Assembly: GCA_028866835.1 (NCBI GenBank)
Contig: JAGWHJ010000004.1
Coordinates: 1 to 60,822, forward strand
Reading direction: 5' to 3'
Source of the DNA: Candidatus Micrarchaeota archaeon
Lineage (GTDB): Archaea > Micrarchaeota > Micrarchaeia > Micrarchaeales > CABMGC01
DNA: 60,822 nt
Positions 29 to 37,249 of this stretch are shown in pieces; position 1 is the stretch's first letter, and the number at the start of each line of letters is the position of its first letter. A model generated the notes under the pieces. The model was not told the DNA's origin. It saw nothing but the letters and a program-made list of their open reading frames with translations, and did no database searches. The position numbers and the translations under genes were made by a program.

Positions 29-1297
29 TTAGTGCCCAGGATACCACTCGGTTACATTGCTGGAGTTTGTGCCGCTGTTCGAATCGCCGCTGTAATCGTT
101 GAAGTCGCCATTCAGGGGCCACCAGCCTGCGAGCGCCTGCAGCGATATGGGTTCGGCCCCTATCCCGCCCATGTAAAGAGCGTGCATGTCACTCGATGAG
201 AGGCTGCTGTTGTATATTTGGACATTTGATATCGAACCATTGAAATAAGAGATCCTGGTGGGCTGTGTCTTATTGACTGGGCAAATGTTGGGCGCACAGA
301 TCGGCTGGGTGCTGTTGTCGAACTGCGCTTTTGCGAGATTTGCGCCGCTGAAGTTGGCGTTTTGCAGGTTGGAACCGGAGAAATTTGCATGCTGCGCATT
401 TGCGCCTTTGAAAATGGCGCTTTGAAGCGAAGAATTCAGCATGTCTGCATGCTGCATATTCACCCCGCTGAAGTTCGCACCTGTACCATCGGAGCATTTG
501 AACAGTGCCTGCTGCAGGTTTGCGCCCTGGAAATTCGCATTGCTTATGTTGCTGCCTTTTACAATTGCGTACTGAAGGTTTGCGCCGCTGAAGTTGGCGC
601 CTTCAAGGTCGAGGCAGGAAAGGTTAGCGCTCTGCAGATTTTTGCCTGAGAAGTTCAACGTAGTAGAACCAGCTATCGGCGCAACGCCGTTCCCTATGTA
701 AAGAAATCTTGATCTGTGTATGATATAGGAACCTCTTAGGCCCATGGTTGCCTTAAGCGTTCCGTTTATGTAAAAATTCACGGTATTGGACGTGGGAGAC
801 AATGTTACGGCAAGGTTATACCATTTGTTGGGCTGGAAATTGCCGGTGAAGCTGTATTGCCTGTCCCCGCACCCTGGCAGAAATTGCAGTGAGCTGCGAT
901 TGAGCGTCAGTTGATACCCGCAGTCAGATGTGGAGACAAGTGTCGACTGCTGGGCCTTTTGGCTCTTCATCCAAAGGTCTATAGTGATGCCTTTATTCGC
1001 AGGGGTTATGTTCAAGTAATGATTCATTGGTATGACGGCGCCGTTGGTGCGGCCATTCATTACTGGCGTAAATTCCGGCGGCCAGTTCTGGCATACGCCT
1101 TGAAGCGAGGGTGGACTCTGCACCCTGAATGCCGACTTCAGAACCGTGCAAGAACCGGGTTTTGCGGTAGGACCTTGCAAAAATGAGTTGAGTATGCCAG
1201 TCTCATAAAAGAGGACAACTACCACGGCAATAGCGACTATTGCAAAAGCATAAGTGTGCATATACTCCAAAACCGACTGGAGCTTGTACTCTCTCAT
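29..1297 (-). CDS. Class III signal-peptide (pilin-like) LamG/concanavalin-domain surface protein with inserted pentapeptide repeats
   Basis: N-terminus MREYKLQSVLEYMHTYAFAIVAIAVVVVLF is an archaeal pilin-like leader (start moved to ATG 1297). LamG motifs ITIDLWMK, NKWYNLAVT, FNGSISNVQIYN, GWWPLNG; A(N/D)(L/F)xx repeats at ~312-658. Confidence 0.8.
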   Translation of the reverse strand: MREYKLQSVLEYMHTYAFAIVAIAVVVVLFYETGILNSFLQGPTAKPGSCTVLKSAFRVQSPPSLQGVCQNWPPEFTPVMNGRTNGAVIPMNHYLNITPANKGITIDLWMKSQKAQQSTLVSTSDCGYQLTLNRSSLQFLPGCGDRQYSFTGNFQPNKWYNLAVTLSPTSNTVNFYINGTLKATMGLRGSYIIHRSRFLYIGNGVAPIAGSTTLNFSGKNLQSANLSCLDLEGANFSGANLQYAIVKGSNISNANFQGANLQQALFKCSDGTGANFSGVNMQHADMLNSSLQSAIFKGANAQHANFSGSNLQNANFSGANLAKAQFDNSTQPICAPNICPVNKTQPTRISYFNGSISNVQIYNSSLSSSDMHALYMGGIGAEPISLQALAGWWPLNGDFNDYSGDSNSGTNSSNVTEWYPGH

Positions 1298-1427
1298 ATA
1301 CCTGTTACTATCAGAGACTTTGCATCTTATATAGCATTCCTTTTGATCGCAGTATTCGATACTGCGCAACAGCGTACCTGGTCGGATTGCCGCACGTTTT
1401 ATCCAGGTAACGCCGTTTTGATGCAAT

Positions 1428-1435
1428 CTTTATAA
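1428..1435 (+). promoter_or_regulatory. TATA box for riboswitch/ECF transcript
   Basis: TTTTATAA about 25 nt upstream of the start of the structured leader. Confidence 0.5.
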
Positions 1436-1458
1436 TGATGCTTTCAAAGGTTAATGTA

Positions 1459-1587
1459 AGGATAGCTAGTTCAGAACTAGCCGTGTCAGGGGAAAGCGGT
1501 GAAAATCCGCTGCTGTGCCGCAACTGTAAGCCCATCCGTTTGGGTAAGCCAGGCTGCCTGAATCCGCGATGCCCACGAGCATGGTGA
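1459..1587 (+). ncRNA. Cobalamin (B12) riboswitch-like leader
   Basis: Ordered consensus elements: GGGAA, hairpin AGCGG-TGAAAAT-CCGCT (1495-1511), GCCGCAACTGTAA (1517-1529), hairpin 1531-1544, B12 box AAGCCAG (1546-1552), TCAGG/CCTGA pairing, and a hairpin at 1569-1582 next to the GGTGA RBS. Confidence 0.85.
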
Positions 1588-1589
1588 AT

Positions 1590-2132
1590 ATGAGAACAAA
1601 CAATCTGGTGAAGTTGGTACTGTCTGTTTTTATAGCGAACGGGATACGGCTGTTAAGGATAATTCCAAATAACGACCCAATAATGTCAATGGCCTTGCCA
1701 TTCTCAAGGAGAGGCTCCGCATGGATATCGTTTATTTTCCCGCTTCTCACCATGGCGTCATTCGATTTTGTCACCGGATACGTTGGGGTCTGGACCGCGA
1801 TTACGGCGCTCACCTACGGTTTCATAGGCATCGCTTTCCATTTCTATCTGAAGGACAGGAAGGATGTTAACATAAGGACTTACATGGGCTGCGGGATTGC
1901 GGGGGTATTGGCATTCGACTTCGTTACGGGGGTGGTTGCAACCCCGCTTATTTACGGCGGGACGTTAGAGCAGTCATTCTTTGGTCAGATACCGTTCACG
2001 ATCACGCACTTGCTTACGAGCTCATTCTTTATCCTGATAGTCACGCCTTTACTGGATAAGAACATCCTATTGAACAAAAGGCTAGATGACAATAGAATCT
2101 GGTCCTACATCTCCAGCTTGACATTGGGCTGA
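1590..2132 (+). CDS. ECF transporter S-component-like membrane protein, probably corrinoid uptake
   Basis: ~180 aa with 5-6 hydrophobic helices and a PNxxP motif (IPNNDPI) typical of CbrT-like S components; lies behind the B12 riboswitch. Start could be 1581 or 1590. Confidence 0.7.
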   Translation: MRTNNLVKLVLSVFIANGIRLLRIIPNNDPIMSMALPFSRRGSAWISFIFPLLTMASFDFVTGYVGVWTAITALTYGFIGIAFHFYLKDRKDVNIRTYMGCGIAGVLAFDFVTGVVATPLIYGGTLEQSFFGQIPFTITHLLTSSFFILIVTPLLDKNILLNKRLDDNRIWSYISSLTLG

Positions 2133-4310: not shown

Positions 4311-4466
4311 TTATAAGTGCTGCCGTTCTCCAAATTTTGATGTATATTTGCCTTTATCTATAAGGTGCATTACTATATGGCTTCCGCTTTGGTGATGAAA
4401 CGTATAGCCGATTTTAGATAGCGCCTTTATTACTTTGTCGTAATTTAGAGGAATTAGCCTAGACAC
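4311..4466 (-). pseudogene. hicA: HicA-family toxin, C-terminally truncated (51 aa)
   Basis: GTG start overlapping the hicB stop; MSRLIPLNYDKVIKALSKIGYTFHHQSGSHIVM matches the HicA N-half including GSH; the VPxH and C-terminal helix are missing. Not in the ORF track. Confidence 0.7.
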
Positions 4467-4668
4467 TTACCTGCACCATTCCAATAGGGACAGGGTTGCC
4501 ATCTTTCTTAAGCGCCTCTACGTATGCTTGTATTGCCTCCTTAACATTCTTCATAAGCTCTTTCTTGGTTTTGCCTTCGGTAGCACAGCCAGGCAAATCA
4601 GGAACTTTTGCAACATAAACGCCATCTTCATCTCTTTCTATGATTACTCTATAACTCATTTTTGACAT
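4459..4668 (-). CDS. hicB: HicB-family antitoxin
   Basis: YRVIIERDEDGVYVAKVPDLPGCATEGKTKKELMKNVKEAI is the classic HicB signature. Confidence 0.92.
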   Translation of the reverse strand: MSKMSYRVIIERDEDGVYVAKVPDLPGCATEGKTKKELMKNVKEAIQAYVEALKKDGNPVPIGMVQVSV

Positions 4669-8382: not shown

Positions 8383-11300
8383 CTACTGCTTCTGCCTCCT
8401 CCTTGCCGGCCTCTGCGACCTTGCCCATCTTGAATGGCCTTTCTTGACCATCCATATGGTAAGTATTATCAGCATGCTTGCTACCAGTGCCACTCCGCCT
8501 ATCGTTCCGTAGCTTATGAGCAGCGAGCCTATGGCAACGGACTGCGTTGACGTGGTAGGGGCCCACGAATAGTCAGGCGCAGTGAATGTCTTTGAGGAGA
8601 TGAAGGAAGGATCGTACGCGACCTGTATTGGAGGCTGGTGGACAAGTATAGGCTCTGGAGGAGGGGTGCCGTAATACTGCGCTATTATGGTGTGGAAGCC
8701 TGAGCCGCACGCCATTGCCTTGAAAGAGAAGTTTCCCATAGAGTTCGTTGTTGCCACCCCGATAAGGCCGAGCTGCGATGTGCATATGCCAGTGCCGTTG
8801 TTGGCATAGGGCTGGCAATACTGCTGTGCGGGGCCGTGGGCAGCGCATGTAGCAGGCAGGTGGAAGTTGCCGTAAATGTTGCAGTTGAAAGATGGCAGTT
8901 GGAGCAGGCTTGACGGTGGCGGCGGGCACGACGCAGGGCTGGTGAACGGCACAGAGGAAGGCTTGTAGTTGACAGTATGTGCGTTAGCCATCTCGCCGGT
9001 GTAGACCGGATTCGAGTTGATGCAGCCCGCAATGGGAGGGCCCGAAGCTCCATTCCCGAAAGCGCACAGCTGCGCGTCCTTGGGATCAGTCTGCGGATTG
9101 TACTTGAAATAGTTTATGTTCTGGTCGTAATACAGATAGATGTGGCCTCCCTTGAGTGGCACAGTGTTTATGCTGAACTGCGGCCTGAAGAAGGCACTGC
9201 CGTTTATCCAGAGTGTCGTCTGGTTGGGGTTGCTTCCATCCACCACTGGTATCACATTCAGCGTAACGTTCGTCAGGTTTGCTATGTCGGCATCTATCGG
9301 CATGTAAAGGGTATTGTTGAACCGGTCATGGTATACGTAAACTAGCCTGTGGTACCCGAATATGTCCTTGGGGGTGTTCTTGGTCCCGTTGAGGTCTAGG
9401 TTGATTATTGTGGAGTACACAGGGAAGCGCTCCCAGTTGAAGAGGCTTACAAGCGCGGGGGCATTTGTCTGCGAATATGAGAAGTTGTTGTATTTGTCTA
9501 TCGTGGAGCTGGTCTTTGCGTAAGGCGCTGCGCAAGATGGTTTGTAACATGGAGGCACGATGGGCTTTGACTTGATGACCTCATAGCCAGGATACGGGCC
9601 TTGCATATGAGTCATGGTATTGAAGAGGAGCTGCCTTGTCGAATTGATTATGCCCTGATGGTTCGATGAGGGAAGAAAAGTGGCATTGATGTATATGTTT
9701 GCAAGCTTCCTGTCGGTTGCAAACTGGTATATTATCTGTGGGGGAAGGGTTGACGGCGCTATGCTCTCCTGGTAGTATGTCTGGTTTGCAAGGTATTCCG
9801 CATATGATGGCCCGCCTTCAATATTGGCGACCAGAGGCGAGGATTTTGTCCACAGGGTGTTTGCGAATGCGTACACCGTGGCTCCAGAAGTCGATGTGGT
9901 GCTTATTGAAGGGCATGACGGGCCAGGGTAGTTTGTCTGCGTTATCTGCTCTGTAAGCGAGTACGTGTAAGAGAAAGGCACTACCAGGTAGCCGCCGACT
10001 ATGCTGTTTATTGCAGTAACCGGCACTGCGGCCCCGGAGCTCGTGCTTGGAAGGTGGCAGAAAGGCCCATGATGGCCTGTCGAGCACGAAATCTTGTTTA
10101 TCTCTGTCGAGCCGAATGCGCCCTGGTAGTATGTAGGCGTCTTGCTTGGTCCTCCCGGAGCAGTAGATCCTGCCGTGAACGACGAGTAGAAGAAGTCCTC
10201 ATAAGTAAGCGTCCTTAGTGAGCCTATGCTTTCAGTGTACTCGAATGGATTATCTGCAGGATACACCAGGCCCCATATGTTGTCTATGTTTGGCTCGTAG
10301 CGGCATGTCCCGTAACCGCTCCCACTGCCAATTGCAGTAGACGCGGCCTTTTTATCAACGTAGCACTTATATAGCGGGTAGGAGAACGGCGGCCCTATCA
10401 CACCTATGTCTTTCGTGTAATTCTCCACATTGAAGTTTATGAATGCGAGGCCGCCGTGCTGGTTTGCAACATGGGCCTTGCCAGTGCCGCCGTTCAGTGA
10501 GGGCTGCGAAGGCAGGTACACCACTGCGGTGCCGTTTATGCCAACACCAAAGCTGACGCCGTCGAAGTTTGGAATGTGGCTCGTGAATGGTATGCAGCTG
10601 CCTAAGAAATGCGTGCACTCCCAGTTGCTGATGCTGGGCAGCAACGGCTGGTAGCTGCTTGGCGCGTCATGCGCATTCACAGTGCAGTTTGCTGTATTTT
10701 CATTACAGACGTTCAAGGACGTGTCCGATTTTGAGCAATGGCCGCCAAGGCAAACCTGCACTCCGCCGTCGGTGCCGGTCACATTTGCAGCGAGTATCCA
10801 GCCGTAGGGTGGGAAGTATTTCTGGGTTGGCTCGGGTATGGCCGTGGTGCCGAAATCGCCGCCTATCCAGATGTCGTTTGCGTGAGTCGGGCTTATCTGT
10901 ATGTCTGCGCCGCTCGAGTTTATCACGCGCAGCATGAGCATGTTGAACTTCACACCGCCGGTGCAGCCCTCATGAACCCCACCGATGATGATGGAACAGG
11001 TCTGACCGTACCTTGCGCCCCAGTTGTCAAGCACGTAGAGGTAACCGTTTATGTCCTGTATGCCAAGCGGGTAGTGCCAGCAGTCCCTGTCGAGCTGTCC
11101 TGATGCAGCATTGTTATCGCCGATGTTTGCGTTCCCGTCAAGTATCGCCGCAAGGTCTGCTGCGGCCTTGCTTGTCCCGGTCCTTGGGTTTATGCCCTCA
11201 AAGCCTCCCGACAGGAAGTAACTTGAGATGTTGAGGTCCGGTATCGTATCCTCGATCGGGCTGAAAAGGCCGTGCCCACAGCCGTTGTTTATGGTCCCGC

Positions 11301-14300
11301 ACGTCTTTGTGTCCGAGAACACAAGATCGAAGCAGCCTACGTAGTCGAGGGTGTTTGCGTCATATGCAAGTATGTTGTGGTCTTTCGGATCCGCGACGTA
11401 CAGCAACGCGCCCGTTGGAGATGCGGTTATCTCAAGCCATTGGGACCCTTCCTGCGGTGCGCACCCTGTGACAGCGCCATGGCAGAACTCGACGGGGTCG
11501 ATGATGAAGTTGCCGGTCACCTGCCTATCAAGCTCATTTCCTGTGATGGTATTAGATATCCTTACAATGAACGGATACGAAAACTGGTCTGACATGGTGT
11601 CCGTAAAGTTAACTGAACCAGTAAGGTAGACTGTGCCGAAACTGTCTGCACTGACATTATATGCCGTGAATCCGCTGTAGGTAAGTCCAGTATGGGCGGC
11701 ATATTTTTTTATTCTGAGGATATTCCCTACATCTGGGTATATGGCGTTGACAACGTAAGTTGAGCCGTTTTGCAGGCCTATGACGGTGCCCCAGTAGGAG
11801 CCCCAGTTGCTGTCCCACGTGCCCTGGTCGGTTTCGGATGTGAGGCTGTTGGGCTGCAGTATGCTGCTGTTGTACTCGCCGTGCGCAAGGAGCTTTGCGA
11901 CAAACACCAGCTGTGCAGGGGACGAGGAGGAGGGAGGTGGCGGCGTAGGGCTTGGTGAGCCTGATGGGGCGCCGCTAAGCGTGCTTATGAACTTGAAAAA
12001 GTCCTGGCCCTGCGGCGTAGCGCCTGCGCCGTTGCCTAGGAAGGCGGCGAGCGCATCTCCTACTGCTGTAGGGTCGGCCCAACCTATCTCCGTGCAGCCG
12101 CCGGGCATGTTGCCTATTACCTGGCCGGTAGTCACGCGCTCCCCTGCTGTCACAGTGGGGGTGAAGCCCTCAGCATAGTATATATACTGGCGCGGATAGC
12201 CCCCTGAAACGGAATCTGGTGGTAGGGGATGGTCTAGCCTAAGCACGACGAATGCATCGTTGCCACAGTAGTTCCAGCCGCTATTGGTCAGGGGGCTCAG
12301 TATCGTTCCGGAGCCCACTGCGAGAAGTTGGCAACCTGATGTGCCTGCCCAGTCCACGCCTTCGTCTATCCATGGGCCACCGCTGCTGGTGTGGTCAAGA
12401 ATACAGCTTGAGCTCACGGGATAGGTATAACCTGAGGTGCTTACCGCGCCGCTCGTGCCTCCTGCACCTGCACTTGTGCCGAGTATGTACATGTAGTCGC
12501 TGGATATTGCCGTAATGGAATCGGCCTGTATGCCTATCGAACCGGGGCCGCCGCTGGTGGGTTGAGTGGCTGATGAAGAGCCAAGGCATGCGCCTCCCTT
12601 GCTTCCTGTCCAGGGATATGGATAATCAGATGGTATTGGGCCTACGCACGGCAGAGAAGCACCCGCCTTTGAGATCATGTCAAGCACGTGCGTGGGGTAC
12701 CAGCAATCAGGGCCTACCTCAGGTGGTGTACAACTGCCCCCATTTCCAGGGTTATTGCACTGTGCAGTCGGGGAGCCGCCGTTGTATGAGCATAGTGCCT
12801 CCCACCAGCCGTTGTACTGGTTTATGAGTGGTACGAAGAACTTCGCGGATGCTATGGCCTGCGCAAGGAAGTCAGATGGTGAGCAGCCGCTCAAAGCGTT
12901 GGGGTCCTGCCCCTCTTTTGACATATCGCTGGTGCTCAGGCCAAACCAGCCGCCGTAGCCCGCGCTGTTCGTTGTCGGGTAGCATGTGCCACCAGATTCC
13001 TGCATCTCCACGGATGCGATAATGACATCGGGGATGCCAGTCTGTGTTGATGCTTGCTCGATGTACGGAACCTGCCACGCGTCTGATCCAAGAAGTATAC
13101 TTGCGAGTGCAGAGCTCGGCGTTGCTGAGCTGCCTCCGCCACCCACATTAGGAGCGGAGATAAGGCTTATTATGTTCTGCTCGTTGTTCACATCGAAGCC
13201 CAAGCCGCTGCCGTCGCTGCTCCTTCCGAATGCTGTGAGGTTTGTGCCTTCCGCAGGACCAGCGCCAAGGGATCCGCCGATGTTAACCGAACTCCATGGA
13301 AGGCCTCCGCCTCCGCCCGGGCAGTTCTCTCCGCTGTATGAAGTTGGCATGTCACCGCAGAAGTACTGGCTACCTGGTTCGTAGGTCTGCCACTGGCAGA
13401 AGGTGTGGCCAGGGACCGGAGATGGACAGGCGACACCGTTCCAACCGCCCTGTGCTTGAGAATCATGAGTATAATGATATGCAGCCTGCATCGAGCACAA
13501 CGGGTTCCACCACCAGTCGGTTCCAGTGGTGCATTTGGAGCCATCGTAGCTACCTCCTAGTCCAGGACCCATCTGGAGAAGACCGAGGTTGGAGCCGAGC
13601 TGTGCACCTGGCTGGAAAGAGCTTTCTTTGTCTGCAATCGACACTATTATCATGAGCTGGTCTCCGGAAAATCCAGCCGCCTTGGCGCAGTCGACAACCT
13701 GAGCAAATGTTAATGCGTCAGACGAACCTGGGGTGTAAGCCTGATTCGGGCAGTTGCCACTTGACGATGTGCCCGTATGGTACTCTGCGAAGAAGAGCGA
13801 TGGAGTGTTTATGTGGAATGGATCCTCATGGTTGGTAGGGCCGTAGTAATTCCAGGGGCTGTATATGTCATAGGAAACGCTCAGGTTAAGTGCCTTCGAC
13901 ACGAGGTTCAGATTAGACACATTTGATTTCATTATTAGATATGGAAGCACCTGGGTGTTGAAGCTTGTTGTTGCACTGCCTGGCCACGTAACCTCGGTGT
14001 ACGGTATGTAGCTGTTCCTGAAGTTGCTGAGCGAGTACGTTACGGCATAGTCATAGGTGTAAGAGCAGGAAGCTGTGCTGTACGAAAGACCAGTCAGTGT
14101 TTTGGTGAAAGATATGGGTGGCACGTTCGCGAAGTTCGCATACCTTGCATTCCAGGTCCATATGGCCCTCTGGCCGTTCAACGGGAACGTGTCCCATATG
14201 TTCTCCGCAGTGGAAAATGCGGTGGAAACGTTGCGGTTGACTTCAGGGGTGTAGGCCCATTCATTGATGGCAAGGGTTGCAGGTTTTATTATATTGACGC

Positions 14301-14727
14301 TCGCCGAGGCGCTTGGAAGGCCGCCGCTGTTATAGGTTATTGAAAGGAGGGCATCGACAGTGCTGTGCAGCTGGTTCGTATTAGCAAGGCACTGGTCCCC
14401 GGCTATGAACGAGGCAGGGTCAGTATAGAAGTACTGTGGGTTGGTGGGGCTCTTCTCTGGGACCTGCGGGCAGGTTATATACCATGCGGCGTTGTTATTG
14501 TTATACTGCGCCACGGAGCTTGCCGGAGAGTATATCCTTGTGGGACCTGTCGATACCACAGGTGGCTTGCTTACGTGTGAATATGAGGTAGAGAACGGCT
14601 GGAGATAGTGATATGATACGGTGGTTGCATGGGCATTAGGAATTAGAACCATGAATAGCAGAGAGCTAAGGAGCGCCAATGCTAGGGTAATTCTCCTGGT
14701 ACCCATGGATTTCATATAGCTATTCAC
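8383..14727 (-). CDS. Giant (2114 aa) membrane-anchored surface protein with two SLT/lysozyme-like domains and an M23-like domain
   Basis: Signal peptide (RRITLALALLSSLLFMVLIPNAHA). SLT1: KESS..GLLQM. SLT2: QESGG..ALCSYNGG. M23-like: DEGVDW..AVGSGTI..VTAGERVTTGQVIG. C-terminal TM plus basic tail; GTGA overlap with the upstream gene. Confidence 0.85.
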   Translation of the reverse strand: MNSYMKSMGTRRITLALALLSSLLFMVLIPNAHATTVSYHYLQPFSTSYSHVSKPPVVSTGPTRIYSPASSVAQYNNNNAAWYITCPQVPEKSPTNPQYFYTDPASFIAGDQCLANTNQLHSTVDALLSITYNSGGLPSASASVNIIKPATLAINEWAYTPEVNRNVSTAFSTAENIWDTFPLNGQRAIWTWNARYANFANVPPISFTKTLTGLSYSTASCSYTYDYAVTYSLSNFRNSYIPYTEVTWPGSATTSFNTQVLPYLIMKSNVSNLNLVSKALNLSVSYDIYSPWNYYGPTNHEDPFHINTPSLFFAEYHTGTSSSGNCPNQAYTPGSSDALTFAQVVDCAKAAGFSGDQLMIIVSIADKESSFQPGAQLGSNLGLLQMGPGLGGSYDGSKCTTGTDWWWNPLCSMQAAYHYTHDSQAQGGWNGVACPSPVPGHTFCQWQTYEPGSQYFCGDMPTSYSGENCPGGGGGLPWSSVNIGGSLGAGPAEGTNLTAFGRSSDGSGLGFDVNNEQNIISLISAPNVGGGGSSATPSSALASILLGSDAWQVPYIEQASTQTGIPDVIIASVEMQESGGTCYPTTNSAGYGGWFGLSTSDMSKEGQDPNALSGCSPSDFLAQAIASAKFFVPLINQYNGWWEALCSYNGGSPTAQCNNPGNGGSCTPPEVGPDCWYPTHVLDMISKAGASLPCVGPIPSDYPYPWTGSKGGACLGSSSATQPTSGGPGSIGIQADSITAISSDYMYILGTSAGAGGTSGAVSTSGYTYPVSSSCILDHTSSGGPWIDEGVDWAGTSGCQLLAVGSGTILSPLTNSGWNYCGNDAFVVLRLDHPLPPDSVSGGYPRQYIYYAEGFTPTVTAGERVTTGQVIGNMPGGCTEIGWADPTAVGDALAAFLGNGAGATPQGQDFFKFISTLSGAPSGSPSPTPPPPSSSSPAQLVFVAKLLAHGEYNSSILQPNSLTSETDQGTWDSNWGSYWGTVIGLQNGSTYVVNAIYPDVGNILRIKKYAAHTGLTYSGFTAYNVSADSFGTVYLTGSVNFTDTMSDQFSYPFIVRISNTITGNELDRQVTGNFIIDPVEFCHGAVTGCAPQEGSQWLEITASPTGALLYVADPKDHNILAYDANTLDYVGCFDLVFSDTKTCGTINNGCGHGLFSPIEDTIPDLNISSYFLSGGFEGINPRTGTSKAAADLAAILDGNANIGDNNAASGQLDRDCWHYPLGIQDINGYLYVLDNWGARYGQTCSIIIGGVHEGCTGGVKFNMLMLRVINSSGADIQISPTHANDIWIGGDFGTTAIPEPTQKYFPPYGWILAANVTGTDGGVQVCLGGHCSKSDTSLNVCNENTANCTVNAHDAPSSYQPLLPSISNWECTHFLGSCIPFTSHIPNFDGVSFGVGINGTAVVYLPSQPSLNGGTGKAHVANQHGGLAFINFNVENYTKDIGVIGPPFSYPLYKCYVDKKAASTAIGSGSGYGTCRYEPNIDNIWGLVYPADNPFEYTESIGSLRTLTYEDFFYSSFTAGSTAPGGPSKTPTYYQGAFGSTEINKISCSTGHHGPFCHLPSTSSGAAVPVTAINSIVGGYLVVPFSYTYSLTEQITQTNYPGPSCPSISTTSTSGATVYAFANTLWTKSSPLVANIEGGPSYAEYLANQTYYQESIAPSTLPPQIIYQFATDRKLANIYINATFLPSSNHQGIINSTRQLLFNTMTHMQGPYPGYEVIKSKPIVPPCYKPSCAAPYAKTSSTIDKYNNFSYSQTNAPALVSLFNWERFPVYSTIINLDLNGTKNTPKDIFGYHRLVYVYHDRFNNTLYMPIDADIANLTNVTLNVIPVVDGSNPNQTTLWINGSAFFRPQFSINTVPLKGGHIYLYYDQNINYFKYNPQTDPKDAQLCAFGNGASGPPIAGCINSNPVYTGEMANAHTVNYKPSSVPFTSPASCPPPPSSLLQLPSFNCNIYGNFHLPATCAAHGPAQQYCQPYANNGTGICTSQLGLIGVATTNSMGNFSFKAMACGSGFHTIIAQYYGTPPPEPILVHQPPIQVAYDPSFISSKTFTAPDYSWAPTTSTQSVAIGSLLISYGTIGGVALVASMLIILTIWMVKKGHSRWARSQRPARRRQKQ

Positions 14728-35166: not shown

Positions 35167-36105
35167 CTATGGTACGTAATAGCCAGCATACCAGGCATCT
35201 GTATAGTATACATTGACACTGGCCCCGTTCCTCTTGTTGCCGCTGTAGTCATTAACATCGCCGTTCAGGGGCCACCAGCCGACGAGGTTGTTCAGGGCCT
35301 CGGGATGGCCGCCTATGCCCTCGTAGTAAAGGGCGGTTATCTCGTTCTGGGTTAATGAAGTGTTATAAAGCTGCACGTTTGCCATCTGTCCGCTGAAATT
35401 GTCCGGATCGGTTTGCAGAACCACATCCACTTGGTTGTATCCGAGATACATCACAGAATTTGCCGTGATGATCCTTGGAAGTAAGGTGTCGGTAAATTCC
35501 TGGAAGGCAGTGCCGTTTGATATGGTAACGCTTGTGCTGTTGTATGTCGCAGCAACGAAGTTCCATTTGTTGAGCGTCACATTTACCAACGAGCTATAAT
35601 ACTCCACGGATCCGAATACCGGCCATGTTGTCACTTCCAACCCGTGCCCTAACGCTCCGTCTAGACTAAGCCCAAAGCTATTGGATGAGTAAATAGATGG
35701 ATATGGATCACCCATGTAAAACAATCCAGGTTCGTGGACGCCGAATGAGGTGGGTTTTATCCACATCACAACAGTGACGGAATTGCTTCCGTAAAGGGAC
35801 TGCGGCACGCCGTTACCAGTGATATTCACGTAACTGCCAGTATTGGGGCTTGAAAAGTTCATGGCAAACTCAGGAATGGCAGAGGTGCACTCGCCCTGAA
35901 GCGAGATGTCGAAAGTGGTGTTGGGGCCTTGGGGCCTGAAGACATGGCATGTGCCTGGCTGCGCTTTTGGGGCATAGCTGAACTGGTTTCCTATGCCGAG
36001 ATAAAGGAAGACGATAAGTACCAATGCAATTATGAGTATCATCCAGCCGTAGGTGGTAAGGTACTCCAGGGCTGCCTGCTGTTTGAGTCGTGGTTTATCG
36101 TGCAT
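35167..36105 (-). CDS. Class III signal-peptide LamG-domain protein
   Basis: QQAALEYLTTYGWMILII, TVVMWIKP, KWNFVAATY, FSGQMANVQLY and GWWPLNG. Confidence 0.85.
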   Translation of the reverse strand: MHDKPRLKQQAALEYLTTYGWMILIIALVLIVFLYLGIGNQFSYAPKAQPGTCHVFRPQGPNTTFDISLQGECTSAIPEFAMNFSSPNTGSYVNITGNGVPQSLYGSNSVTVVMWIKPTSFGVHEPGLFYMGDPYPSIYSSNSFGLSLDGALGHGLEVTTWPVFGSVEYYSSLVNVTLNKWNFVAATYNSTSVTISNGTAFQEFTDTLLPRIITANSVMYLGYNQVDVVLQTDPDNFSGQMANVQLYNTSLTQNEITALYYEGIGGHPEALNNLVGWWPLNGDVNDYSGNKRNGASVNVYYTDAWYAGYYVP

Positions 36106-36163
36106 GCAGGATCTCCATCGGATCATATAATGTTTTGTGGACATATCTTCTTATTCCATCCGC

Positions 36164-37111
36164 TTACGGAACGTAATAGCCGTCATACCATTTACCCGTA
36201 TAATATATGTTGGTAGATACGCCGTTCCTCTTGTTGCCGCTGTAGTCATTGGCATTGCCGTTCAGGGGCCACCAGCCGATGAGGTTGTTCAGGGCCTCGG
36301 GATGGCCGCCTATGCCCTCGTAGTAAAGGGCGGTTATCTCGTTCGAGGTCAAAGACCTGTTATAAAGCTGCACGTTAGCCATCAGACCAGTGAAATAGTC
36401 AGGCGACCCGTCTGCGAATGTATCGAACTGGTTGTAACCCAGTAACATTATAGAATTTTCACTAATGATCGGGGGCGACAGGCTAAAACCGAATCTTTGG
36501 GACGCTGTGCCATTATATATGGTAACGTTGTTTGTGCTGTTGTATGTCACAGCAACGAAGTTCCACTGATTGAGCGAGATGTTAACATTTGTGGGGTCAT
36601 ATTCATTGCCTACGCCTGTGCTCTCGTTTGTTGTCACTTCAAGGCCGTGGTGGCCGCCGTATCCCGCGCCCCTTAGGGTAAGGGCGAAGGAGCTGATAGA
36701 CGAGGAATTGGAATACGGATCCCCAAGGTAGAATAATCCTGGTTCATACTCGCTTAGGGTGGATGGCTTTATCCACATGACAATTGTGAGCGAATTGCCG
36801 CCGCTAAGGCTGCTGTAGAGCGACTGCGGAACGCCGTTGCCGGTGAGGTTTACGTAACCGCTGGCATTGATGCCAGTGAAGTTCATTGTGAACTCGGGCA
36901 ACCCGGAAGTGCACTCGCCCTGAAGCGAGATGTCGAAAGTGGTGTTGGGGCCTTGGGGCCTGAATACGTCGCATGCGCCTGGCTGCACTTTTGGGGCATA
37001 GCTGAACTGGTTTCCTATCCCGAGATAAATGAAGAAGATAAGTACCAATGCAATTATGAGTATCATCCAGCCGTAGGTGGTAAGGTACTCCAGGGCTGCC
37101 TGCTGTTTCAT
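36164..37111 (-). CDS. Class III signal-peptide LamG-domain protein (tandem paralogue)
   Basis: Same motifs as the neighbour; start 37111 or 37129. Confidence 0.85.
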   Translation of the reverse strand: MKQQAALEYLTTYGWMILIIALVLIFFIYLGIGNQFSYAPKVQPGACDVFRPQGPNTTFDISLQGECTSGLPEFTMNFTGINASGYVNLTGNGVPQSLYSSLSGGNSLTIVMWIKPSTLSEYEPGLFYLGDPYSNSSSISSFALTLRGAGYGGHHGLEVTTNESTGVGNEYDPTNVNISLNQWNFVAVTYNSTNNVTIYNGTASQRFGFSLSPPIISENSIMLLGYNQFDTFADGSPDYFTGLMANVQLYNRSLTSNEITALYYEGIGGHPEALNNLIGWWPLNGNANDYSGNKRNGVSTNIYYTGKWYDGYYVP

Positions 37112-37249
37112 CGCATCTTTCCAATCCATACCGAATCGCGCTAAATTAGGGGCGCTTAAAAAGTATATAAAGTTTGGCACGGCTCATCTGCCGTCAGGTA
37201 TTTAAGCTTGTTCGAGATAAGTGAGTATATCATTTGTAGAGGTATTAGT

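Follow-up and report, generated by a model that had tools for sequence, protein, structure and literature searches.

A compact, probably B12-responsive riboswitch behind a TATA box in a Micrarchaeota-type DPANN archaeon

Few riboswitches are known from Archaea. The B12 switch type has been described almost solely in bacteria, and we found no published report of an archaeal cobalamin riboswitch, although Chavez et al. 2020 (PMC7950411) and Gupta and Swati 2019 may bear on priority. In the account given by PMC8241225, the fluoride switch is the only riboswitch experimentally shown in Archaea. The nearest described relatives of the element reported here, which lies downstream of an archaeal promoter in an archaeon with a very small genome, are the btuB-type switches of the Rfam family RF00174 and the compact class IIa switches (env8 HyCbl; RF01689). 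For env8, PMC6158498 states that the loop–loop contact between L5 and L13 is the regulatory switch; this contact adjoins the gene start, as we propose for the archaeal element.

We analyzed a window of 60,822 nucleotides (contig JAGWHJ010000004.1 of assembly GCA_028866835.1); all features described below lie on its plus strand. A search of the entire window with Rfam cmscan recovered RF00174 (Cobalamin) as the sole riboswitch match, at 1455–1576, with 38.5 bits (E 3.1e-6), only 7 bits above the gathering score of 31.5, and spanning the full model length (model positions 1–189). This covariance-model match agrees with the initial annotation, which had read a cobalamin riboswitch from the letters alone, and all the core elements listed there were found in their places. 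The element shares with btuB-type switches the core of P4/L4, L5, P6 and B12 box, as well as the position ahead of B12 uptake and use genes. It differs from them in its archaeal host, its TATA promoter, a side hairpin after P1, its own invariant sequence CACGAGCAUGG and a P6 that is a plain hairpin, in which 8 nt replace the 61-nt insertion of the Rfam consensus. Compactness and the lack of a P6 extension are shared with class IIa, but the window copy scores 27.8 bits against the RF01689 (AdoCbl-II) model, under its gathering score of 36.5. True RF01689-type copies (L132, L133) occur in another DPANN phylum and differ in appearance from the window copy. The AdoCbl riboswitch model RF01482 matched only partially (model positions 23–98), with 33.4 bits against a gathering score of 50.

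According to the Rfam alignment and pair counts over 22 distinct rows, the aptamer core spans 1460–1565. It is closed by P1 (1460–1463 with 1562–1565) and comprises the P2 hairpin (1465–1481), P3 (1486–1490 with 1557–1561), P4 (1495–1499 with 1507–1511, L4 being UGAAAAU), P5 (1514–1515 with 1521–1522, L5 being UGCCG at 1516–1520) and P6 (1524–1526 with 1550–1552, plus 1531–1534 with 1541–1544). The B12-box-like sequence AGCCAGGCUGCCUGA occupies 1547–1561. Folding of the single sequence gave −44 kcal/mol with a z of −1.06, a stability equalled by 28 of 200 shuffles, and missed P1. RNAalifold on a MAFFT alignment put P4/P5 out of register, recovering neither canonical P4/P5 nor P1. The structure was therefore set by hand from the Rfam alignment, and a covariance model (R1) was built from it and used for re-alignment. 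R1 scores the window at 145.1 bits over 1457–1585.

In total, we detected 21 distinct copies of the compact switch, distributed over two families of a single order, the Micrarchaeales; the window copy is the only one in its 1.09-Mb genome. Four further candidates were left out before this count: L018 (95.8 bits) lies on a bacterial-type contig, L027 (24.9 bits) falls within a coding sequence and was treated as a chance match, L022 is identical to L006, and L045 (35.3 bits) is without P5–P6 and the 3' element. Among the 21 copies, 97.2% of helix cells are paired. Two-sided changes were found in 19 of 35 tested pairs (28 in the aptamer, 7 in P13 and the kissing elements), counts that are biased towards the structure since the alignment was model-fitted. 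In this covariation check, of the kind proposed in the initial annotation, shuffled controls gave 5.9 ± 1.5 such pairs, with none of 500 reaching 19, and slid controls gave 3–4. Each aptamer helix shows two-sided changes in the 22 distinct rows. The element is conserved far more than expected by chance. The RNA of the window is very probably a real riboswitch responding to B12.

The window genome contains TBP and archaeal SSU rRNA, and the window contig itself encodes Topo VI-A, LonB, an archaeal ThrRS editing domain, NAC and PcrB. Window and genome are archaeal, of the Micrarchaeota-type DPANN, in agreement with the earlier placement. The switch might nevertheless be a bacterial element that was mis-binned into the assembly, or a recent transfer that the archaeon does not use. 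In favour of this, a 490-kb contig of bacterial type, bearing a classical riboswitch of 95.8 bits, is present in G063, a genome of the same family, and compact look-alikes occur upstream of DUF6580 genes in CPR bacteria. This origin is nonetheless highly improbable given the archaeal marker genes on the window contig and the presence of copies in the single-contig genomes G018, where TBP and switch occur together, and G180. The copies also stand before at least six gene families while sharing a single conserved 3' element, and are preceded by TATA boxes, not by sigma-70 promoters.

In the window, the TATA box TTTATAAT is read at 1429–1436 and begins 31 nt upstream of the first base of P1 (1460). 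A motif of the TTATAA/TTTATA type starts 28–35 nt upstream of P1 in 20 of the 21 copies, compared with 296 of 21,000 random positions of those loci (1.4%). The right spacing noted for this box in the initial annotation is thus a fixed distance to P1 across the copies, which points to a transcript led by an archaeal promoter. Its start would lie around 1456–1460. The sequencing runs listed for 1300–2300 were five DNA runs from two studies, one of them a possible source, and included no RNA run.

All 21 copies carry the invariant 3' element CACGAGCAUGG, with the start codon following 4–7 nt later. Within this element, a P13-like hairpin CCA-CGAGCA-UGG (1573–1584) is predicted for all 21 copies, a U·G replacing the first C–G in one of them. 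Its loop would kiss L5 through the pairs U1516–A1581, G1517–C1580, C1518–G1579, C1519–G1577 and G1520–C1576, with A1578 bulged. The need for a bulged A counts against this pairing. The initial annotation had drawn another hairpin, ATGC-CCACGA-GCAT (1569–1582), with a CAC:GUG kiss. That hairpin does exist in the RNAfold minimum-free-energy structure, but its register is not conserved: all four pairs can form in just 4 of 21 copies, and at most two in 12 of 21. In copy L134, which comes from another DPANN phylum and keeps L5 unchanged, the tail reads CCUCGAGCAAGG and the CAC:GUG kiss is lost. We rejected the register and the kiss on the comparison across the copies and L134, and our own earlier pairing of CACGAGCA with UGCU-GUG was dropped on the same grounds.

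Comparison across lineages favours the hairpin CCA-CGAGCA-UGG, kissing L5 and covering the Shine-Dalgarno sequence. In L134 the hairpin reads CCU-CGAGCA-AGG, so that the stems CCA/UGG of Micrarchaeales and CCU/AGG of L134 differ by one compensatory pair while L5 is identical. The CPR (Patescibacteria) copies L115, L126 and L109 share the DUF6580 gene family and the overall layout. They also have, like the archaeal copies, a 3-bp hairpin after P1 with a loop complementary to L5, although they score just 25–43 bits against the archaeal model. There, L5 is UCGCG and would pair with GCC-CGCGUCA-GGC; relative to the archaeal UGCCG and CGAGCA, UCGCG and CGCGUCA amount to two compensatory positions. 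L5 and the 3' element do not vary among the 21 archaeal copies, and the comparative case for the kissing loop therefore comes from three lineages only.

The Shine-Dalgarno sequence GGUGA (GGTGA in the DNA), already recognized in the initial annotation, lies at 1583–1587 and overlaps the 3' strand of P13. It is complementary to the 16S rRNA 3' end of the same genome (...GATCACCTCA / ...GAUCACCUCA). In most copies the sequence is reduced to GG(U), and the GG stands 4–7 nt from the ATG of the ORF in all 21. The motif's own AUG was rejected as the start, being in frame with the ORF in only 7 of 21 copies as reckoned from the offsets.

These features are compatible with control of translation initiation. 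Transcription would start some 25–30 nt past the TATA box, so that the mRNA would begin almost exactly at P1. The compact aptamer (1460–1565), without the peripheral P6 extension, would bind a corrinoid, and binding would stabilize the kiss between L5 and the P13 loop. GGUGA, 5 nt upstream of the AUG at 1590, begins within the 3' strand of P13, so that abundant B12 would conceal the ribosome site and lower translation of the gene behind it. We consider it quite likely that the whole amounts to a working cobalamin riboswitch of a Micrarchaeota-type DPANN archaeon. For the translational L5–L13 mechanism with its OFF direction, the sequence comparison permits only a slight leaning in favour.

Alternatively, B12 may be sensed and control exerted through transcription elongation or termination, or through mRNA stability, the invariant 3' element then serving the aptamer fold or another factor and not the masking of the ribosome site. 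In L134 about 40 nt separate the hairpin from the likely Shine-Dalgarno sequence downstream, so masking is not universal. The weakness of this sequence in most archaeal copies points the same way. In the CPR relatives a stem-plus-T-run terminator comes after the hairpin; in the archaeal copies it is the start codon. T runs do occur beyond the switch, as TTTTT 42 nt past the GG in the window copy and as T8 24 nt past the GG in L039. These two, however, are the only copies of 21 with a run of at least five T within the examined stretch, which leaves no conserved archaeal termination signal after the switch, and none of the 21 leaders contains such a run. The distance of 4–7 nt between hairpin and start codon in every archaeal copy fits initiation control only. 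Control at a step other than initiation is therefore unlikely.

The genes downstream of the 21 copies are mostly linked to B12, the remainder belonging to uncharacterized families. DUF6580 genes follow the switch in five genomes and large proteins with a PF02310 B12-binding domain likewise in five, four of the latter above the cut-off. Genes for a PduO adenosyltransferase and a BtuF-like Peripla_BP_2 protein each lie behind a single copy. As with RF00174 members, the switch is thus found in the 5' leaders of genes for B12 uptake, use or synthesis. Beyond these copies, DUF6580 genes stand downstream of cobalamin riboswitches in a second DPANN phylum, in CPR bacteria, and in a bacterial operon where the neighbours are EcfT and two ABC ATPases.

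A search for class II ribonucleotide reductase, suggested in the initial annotation as a check on B12 dependence, recovered B12-dependent NrdJ in the window genome (561 bits), together with PduO (173 bits). CobS was found in none of 21 genomes, that of the window (G000) included. Imported B12 would be adenosylated by PduO and then used by NrdJ. NrdJ is present in 191 of 201 genomes of the order but the switch in only about a tenth of the genomes searched, so most relatives cope without it.

The gene downstream of the switch in the window (1590–2132) encodes a membrane protein of 180 aa that matches Pfam PF20221 (DUF6580) with 34 bits against a gathering score of 27. Comparison with homologues sets its start at the ATG at 1590. 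The literature search returned no papers under the name DUF6580, and the NCBIfam search assigned the protein to no family. The initial annotation had called it an ECF S-component, and the AlphaFold model (pLDDT 89.5) points to the same six-helix fold. In VIA, where helical bundles may score Z ~13 by chance, the best 22 rows were all S-component-type chains (Z 15.2–10.5, 141–160 of 180 residues aligned). The same S-component proteins hold the top ranks in Foldseek, with weak E-values (best 0.024). By sequence, phmmer matched no PDB chain up to E 10.

Among the structural matches are BtuM of Thiobacillus denitrificans (PDB 8OVV and 8C7P, Z 11.5 and 11.3) and CbrT of the Lactobacillus delbrueckii complex ECF-CbrT (PDB 6FNP, Z 10.5), neither of which resembles the DUF6580 protein in sequence. 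Like DUF6580, BtuM is linked to B12 uptake and has no encoded ECF module. PMC6072759 describes BtuM as binding cobalt via a cysteine, whereas 34 DUF6580 homologues contain no invariant Cys. CbrT is reported in PMC5997447 as a B12-specific S-component from a host in which NrdJ and PduO make up the B12 genes. It requires EcfT/A/A', and no EcfT was found in the window genome.

The lack of a T module, first noted for the window, extends to this genome, which is 88% complete and yielded no ECF T component (CbiQ/EcfT, PF02361). FecCD gave no match above the cut-off. At 88% completeness, an ECF module or BtuCD could be missing from the assembly. With no T component found in the genome, the DUF6580 protein most likely imports alone, and it is probably an importer of B12 or a corrinoid.

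It is not very likely that the protein lacks self-sufficiency, depending on a missed or unrecognized energizing module or carrying cobinamide or another corrinoid precursor. The incompleteness of the genome leaves room for such a module. CbrT without its ECF module gave no B12-dependent growth in the experiments of PMC5997447. On the bacterial contig, DUF6580 stands beside EcfT and two ABC ATPases, and in G026 a convergent ABC ATPase and permease adjoin the gene. However, CbiQ/EcfT occurs in 11 and DUF6580 in 10 of the 201 genomes of the order, and the two coincide only in G063, on the bacterial-type contig. BtuM, itself S-component-like, supports B12 uptake alone according to PMC6072759. Import by the DUF6580 protein alone therefore remains the reading we prefer.

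We tentatively suggest, with confidence somewhat short of even, that Micrarchaeales acquired the compact switch together with DUF6580, possibly from CPR-like bacteria sharing their habitat. It would then have been refitted for archaeal expression, gaining a TATA box at constant spacing and, instead of the terminator, a hairpin that masks the Shine-Dalgarno sequence, and this one cassette would have been copied upstream of six or more unrelated gene families. If this is true, it would represent the first archaeal RNA-based vitamin regulon to be described, and new B12 proteins would be found among the families it precedes, namely the large proteins with B12-binding and J domains, the 175–185-aa family and the 345–405-aa family. 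An archaeal promoter joined to a platform adjacent to the start codon allows ligand control of translation initiation to be tested directly in Archaea. The switch is also a ready marker for B12 genes in the genomes of DPANN archaea, which depend on B12 but are unable to make it, and it points to DUF6580 and several uncharacterized families of proteins as possibly involved in capturing and handling B12.

We searched the entire window with Rfam cmscan and obtained three matches above gathering scores in 60,822 bases: two tRNAs and a Cobalamin element (RF00174) at 1455-1576 (+), with 38.5 bits (cut-off 31.5, E 3.1e-6) across the whole length of the model. Two other Rfam models stay under their cut-offs for this element, RF01689 (AdoCbl-II) at 27.8 against 36.5 and RF01482 at 33.4 against 50. 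The element is the sole copy in the window's own genome, G000 (1.09 Mb in 40 contigs, 88% complete, 0.55% contamination). Reading of the sequence places on the plus strand a TATA box TTTATAAT (1429-1436), P1 (1460-1463 with 1562-1565), a side hairpin (1465-1481), P3 (1486-1490 with 1557-1561), P4 (1495-1511), P5 with loop L5 UGCCG (1514-1522), P6 (1524-1552), a linker (1566-1572), a small P13-like hairpin CCA-CGAGCA-UGG (1573-1584), GGUGA (1583-1587) and an open reading frame from the AUG at 1590 to 2132. The window copy has 8 nt in place of the 61-nt peripheral insertion of the RF00174 consensus, which reduces its P6 to a plain hairpin. Its score, its covariation and its gene context place the element in the cobalamin riboswitch family, as the initial annotation had proposed.

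RF00174 is positive in 6 of the 61 nearest genomes and in 16 of 118 family genomes, 14 of the latter above the cut-off. A covariance model (R1) made from 14 copies, with the 3' element included, is positive in 14 of 151 genomes of the order (8/75, 0/1 and 5/74 in families f1, f2 and f3) and in 5 of 151 genomes of a phylum sample, every one in f1 or f3, with none in 80 genomes of the sample's other 18 families; these RF00174 and R1 counts come from samples under strict filters, and absence holds only for the genomes searched. Four matches were removed before the count: a bacterial-type copy (L018), a chance match within a gene (L027), an identical duplicate (L022) and a degenerate copy without P5-P6 (L045). 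This left 21 distinct archaeal copies. The degenerate copy, L045:1501-1608 (-) in genome G104, scores 35.3 bits to R1 and keeps P1-P4 without P5, P6 or the 3' element; it has perhaps decayed, or may represent a separate variant.

In a model-fitted alignment of 22 distinct rows, 97.2% of cells are paired. Both sides have changed in 19 of 35 pairs, where shuffles give 5.9 +/- 1.5 (none of 500 attains 19), a margin that is large despite the bias towards structure of a fitted alignment and the kinship of copies, which inflates shuffle tests. When partners were slid by 1-3 columns as a control, 3-4 pairs changed on both sides. Each aptamer helix holds at least one both-side-changed pair in the 22-row alignment, and covariation, which the initial annotation had named as a check, is present. 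As counter-evidence, folding of the single sequence was no better than shuffles (z -1.06), and RNAalifold missed the canonical fold when given an ordinary MAFFT alignment.

The TATA box had been described as lying at the right spacing, and this spacing recurs: a TTATAA/TTTATA motif begins 28-35 nt upstream of P1 in 20 of the 21 copies, with ATATAAAC instead in the remaining one, against 1.4% of 21,000 random positions in the same loci. Because of this distance, the transcript would be expected to begin at or just upstream of P1. The sequence CACGAGCAUGG is invariant in all 21 copies, and the ATG of the open reading frame follows its GG by 4-7 nt in every case. Since the 16S rRNA of G000 terminates in ...GAUCACCUCA, GGUGA in the window copy and GGU in most copies represent a Shine-Dalgarno sequence at a normal aligned distance. 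The archaeal termination signal, a run of at least five T, is present near just 2 of the 21 copies. With promoter and start-codon geometry fixed, the window element and its relatives are a distinct compact archaeal variant.

The hairpin first drawn at the 3' end, ATGC-CCACGA-GCAT, is real in the window copy, but all four pairs are available in just 4 of the 21 copies and at most two in 12; every one of the 21 can form the register CCA-CGAGCA-UGG. The proposed CAC:GUG kiss is not conserved, the CAC being lost in L134, a locus of genome G372 from the phylum holding a Woesearchaeota record. In the 21 Micrarchaeales copies, L5 UGCCG is accompanied by CCA-CGAGCA-UGG after P1 and then, within 4-7 nt, by the start codon. 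L134 has the same L5, a CCU-CGAGCA-AGG hairpin whose stem shows U-A in place of A-U, a compensatory change, and a likely Shine-Dalgarno about 40 nt downstream. Copies from CPR bacteria (L115, L126, L109 and, weakly, L122) have L5 UCGCG and GCC-CGCGUCA-GGC, followed by a stem-plus-T-run terminator. The CPR loop CGCG is able to pair with CGCG of L5, and the archaeal CG-A-GCA with UGCCG through five pairs and one bulged A; archaeal and CPR copies differ by both-side changes at two loop positions. Such pairing fits the regulatory L5-L13 loop-loop switch of the env8 class IIa riboswitch (PMC6158498). Both partners are invariant across the archaeal set, so that the L5-P13 kissing loop of these copies is well motivated and inferred rather than demonstrated. 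The mechanism best supported would be an OFF switch, in which the L5-L13 contact would mask the ribosome site.

The literature searched yielded no account of an archaeal cobalamin riboswitch; the fluoride riboswitch is named as the sole one tested in Archaea (PMC8241225). An archaeal host, as initially assumed, is confirmed by TBP in G000 (103 bits; among controls this search was positive solely in four archaeal genomes), by archaeal SSU rRNA, and by genes on the window contig for topoisomerase VI subunit A, LonB, an archaea-specific ThrRS editing domain, NAC, an S-layer protein and PcrB. Names attached to homologues of the downstream protein include Micrarchaeales and Diapherotrites archaeon, and a one-contig assembly of a relative (G018) holds TBP and a switch copy together.

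Elsewhere in the window, 8386-14727 (-), 29-1426 (-) and 35170-37180 (-) encode large and LamG-type proteins. A 2114-aa protein has just a weak SLT transglycosylase match and three have concanavalin/LamG-type domains, one fused to pentapeptide repeats; in this small archaeon they may act at the cell surface or in contact with a host. Two small overlapping frames at 4311-4668 (-), of 51 and 69 aa, may represent a HicA/HicB toxin-antitoxin pair.

DUF6580 genes lie directly behind the copy in G000, G026, G172, G186 and G152, the match in G186 being sub-threshold (23.9 bits) and a 42-codon short frame intervening in G152. Large proteins with the B12-binding domain PF02310 follow copies in G016, G180, G189 and G152 above the cut-off and in G018 below it; in relatives they are the commonest gene type behind the riboswitch, level with DUF6580. 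Two full-length ones, 718 and 957 aa, also have a DnaJ domain, and the long N- and C-terminal parts of the PF02310 proteins matched no Pfam family. Proteins of the PF02310 and DnaJ type lie at L013:3102-5258 (-) in G016, at L014:4761-7634 (-) in G018, and at L037, L038 and L046. Other copies precede a PduO-type adenosyltransferase (G133), a Peripla_BP_2 (BtuF-type) protein with an Ig-like domain (G131) and two families without a Pfam match, of 175-185 aa (G012, G139, G133; L006:1647-2180, L025:1161-1685, L020:931-1485 (-)) and 345-405 aa (G007, G137; L003/L015, 405 aa, and L026:1642-2676), which are candidates for new B12-related functions. Short or cut frames follow the copies at L021, L023, L024 and L029. 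At L023, L024, L029 and L039 a short frame of 32-42 codons separates the riboswitch from a larger gene, DUF6580 at L039, and a DxHxxG stretch of B12-binding-like type lies further downstream at L024. B12 riboswitches coupled to uORFs have reportedly been described in M. tuberculosis.

The window protein belongs to DUF6580 in Pfam (34 bits, cut-off 27) and has 78 homologues with E <=1e-3. In an alignment of 34 homologues we saw the motifs IPNNDPIM and GQIPFTxxHL; His H140 is invariant, and no Cys is. AlphaFold gives a confident model (pLDDT 89.5, pTM 0.82), and the predicted fold agrees with the ECF S-component that had been suggested: such components take the top Foldseek ranks, with weak E-values (best 0.024), and VIA-align gives 22 S-component-type chains at Z 15.2-10.5 (BtuM 11.5, CbrT 10.5), after which come MreD (9.4) and unrelated proteins that do not exceed 7.5. 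Transport would be the best-supported role for DUF6580.

Among 80 loci encoding DUF6580 relatives, RF00174 exceeds its cut-off upstream in five (four Micrarchaeota, one Parcubacteria), and R1 adds two Saccharibacteria riboswitches. In a second DPANN phylum DUF6580 genes also stand at riboswitch loci, L134 and L132. The riboswitches of L132 (G375) and L133 (G418), both from the phylum holding the Woesearchaeota record, are of the RF01689 type (class IIa; 42.3 and 41.7 bits, above cut-off) and precede lysine-rich frames of 252 aa (Pfam DUF6580) and 249 aa (similar to the former); their L5 is GCCCG, for which no partner loop could be placed. At 11 of the 80 loci, many labelled Iainarchaeum, a same-strand tRNA gene lies directly upstream in place of a riboswitch, about 50-400 nt from the gene at 2501 (L057, L058, L059, L060, L061, L063, L064, L065, L066, L078, L112). 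Several of these matches span 90-150 nt, so that the tRNA genes may hold introns.

The initial annotation had seen no ECF module in the window, and for EcfT this extends beyond it: CbiQ/EcfT was not found in G000 at 88% completeness. Of 201 genomes in the order, 11 have CbiQ and 10 have DUF6580; G063 alone has both, on a bacterial-type contig where DUF1559, DUF4465 and DUF6580 genes follow a classical riboswitch and are adjoined by EcfT and two ABC ATPases. This locus (L127, G063:C4:1-10000, contig of 490,497 bases) has a cobalamin riboswitch of 95.8 bits, a sigma-70-like promoter, a DUF1559 protein with an N-terminal methylation motif, and PEP-CTERM; its DUF6580 gene is seemingly split, or overlapped by the DUF4465 frame. 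The presence of the contig in an archaeal bin probably reflects mis-binning.

FecCD gave a sub-threshold match alone in G000 (22.2 bits against 26.5), no PF02310 protein was found there, and CobS was found in none of 21 genomes, G000 included. G000 encodes PduO (173 bits) and NrdJ (561 bits), the B12-dependent class II RNR for which a search had been suggested; 191 of the order's 201 genomes gave an NrdJ match, a tally that takes in G034 and G050, two unpublished genomes that no other result here uses. The route of import, adenosylation and use that we propose for G000 follows the same logic as the nrdJ-cbrT-pduO cluster of L. delbrueckii (PMC5997447). The simplest reading is that this archaeon is a B12 auxotroph, in which corrinoid would be imported through DUF6580, then adenosylated, and then used for DNA precursor synthesis.
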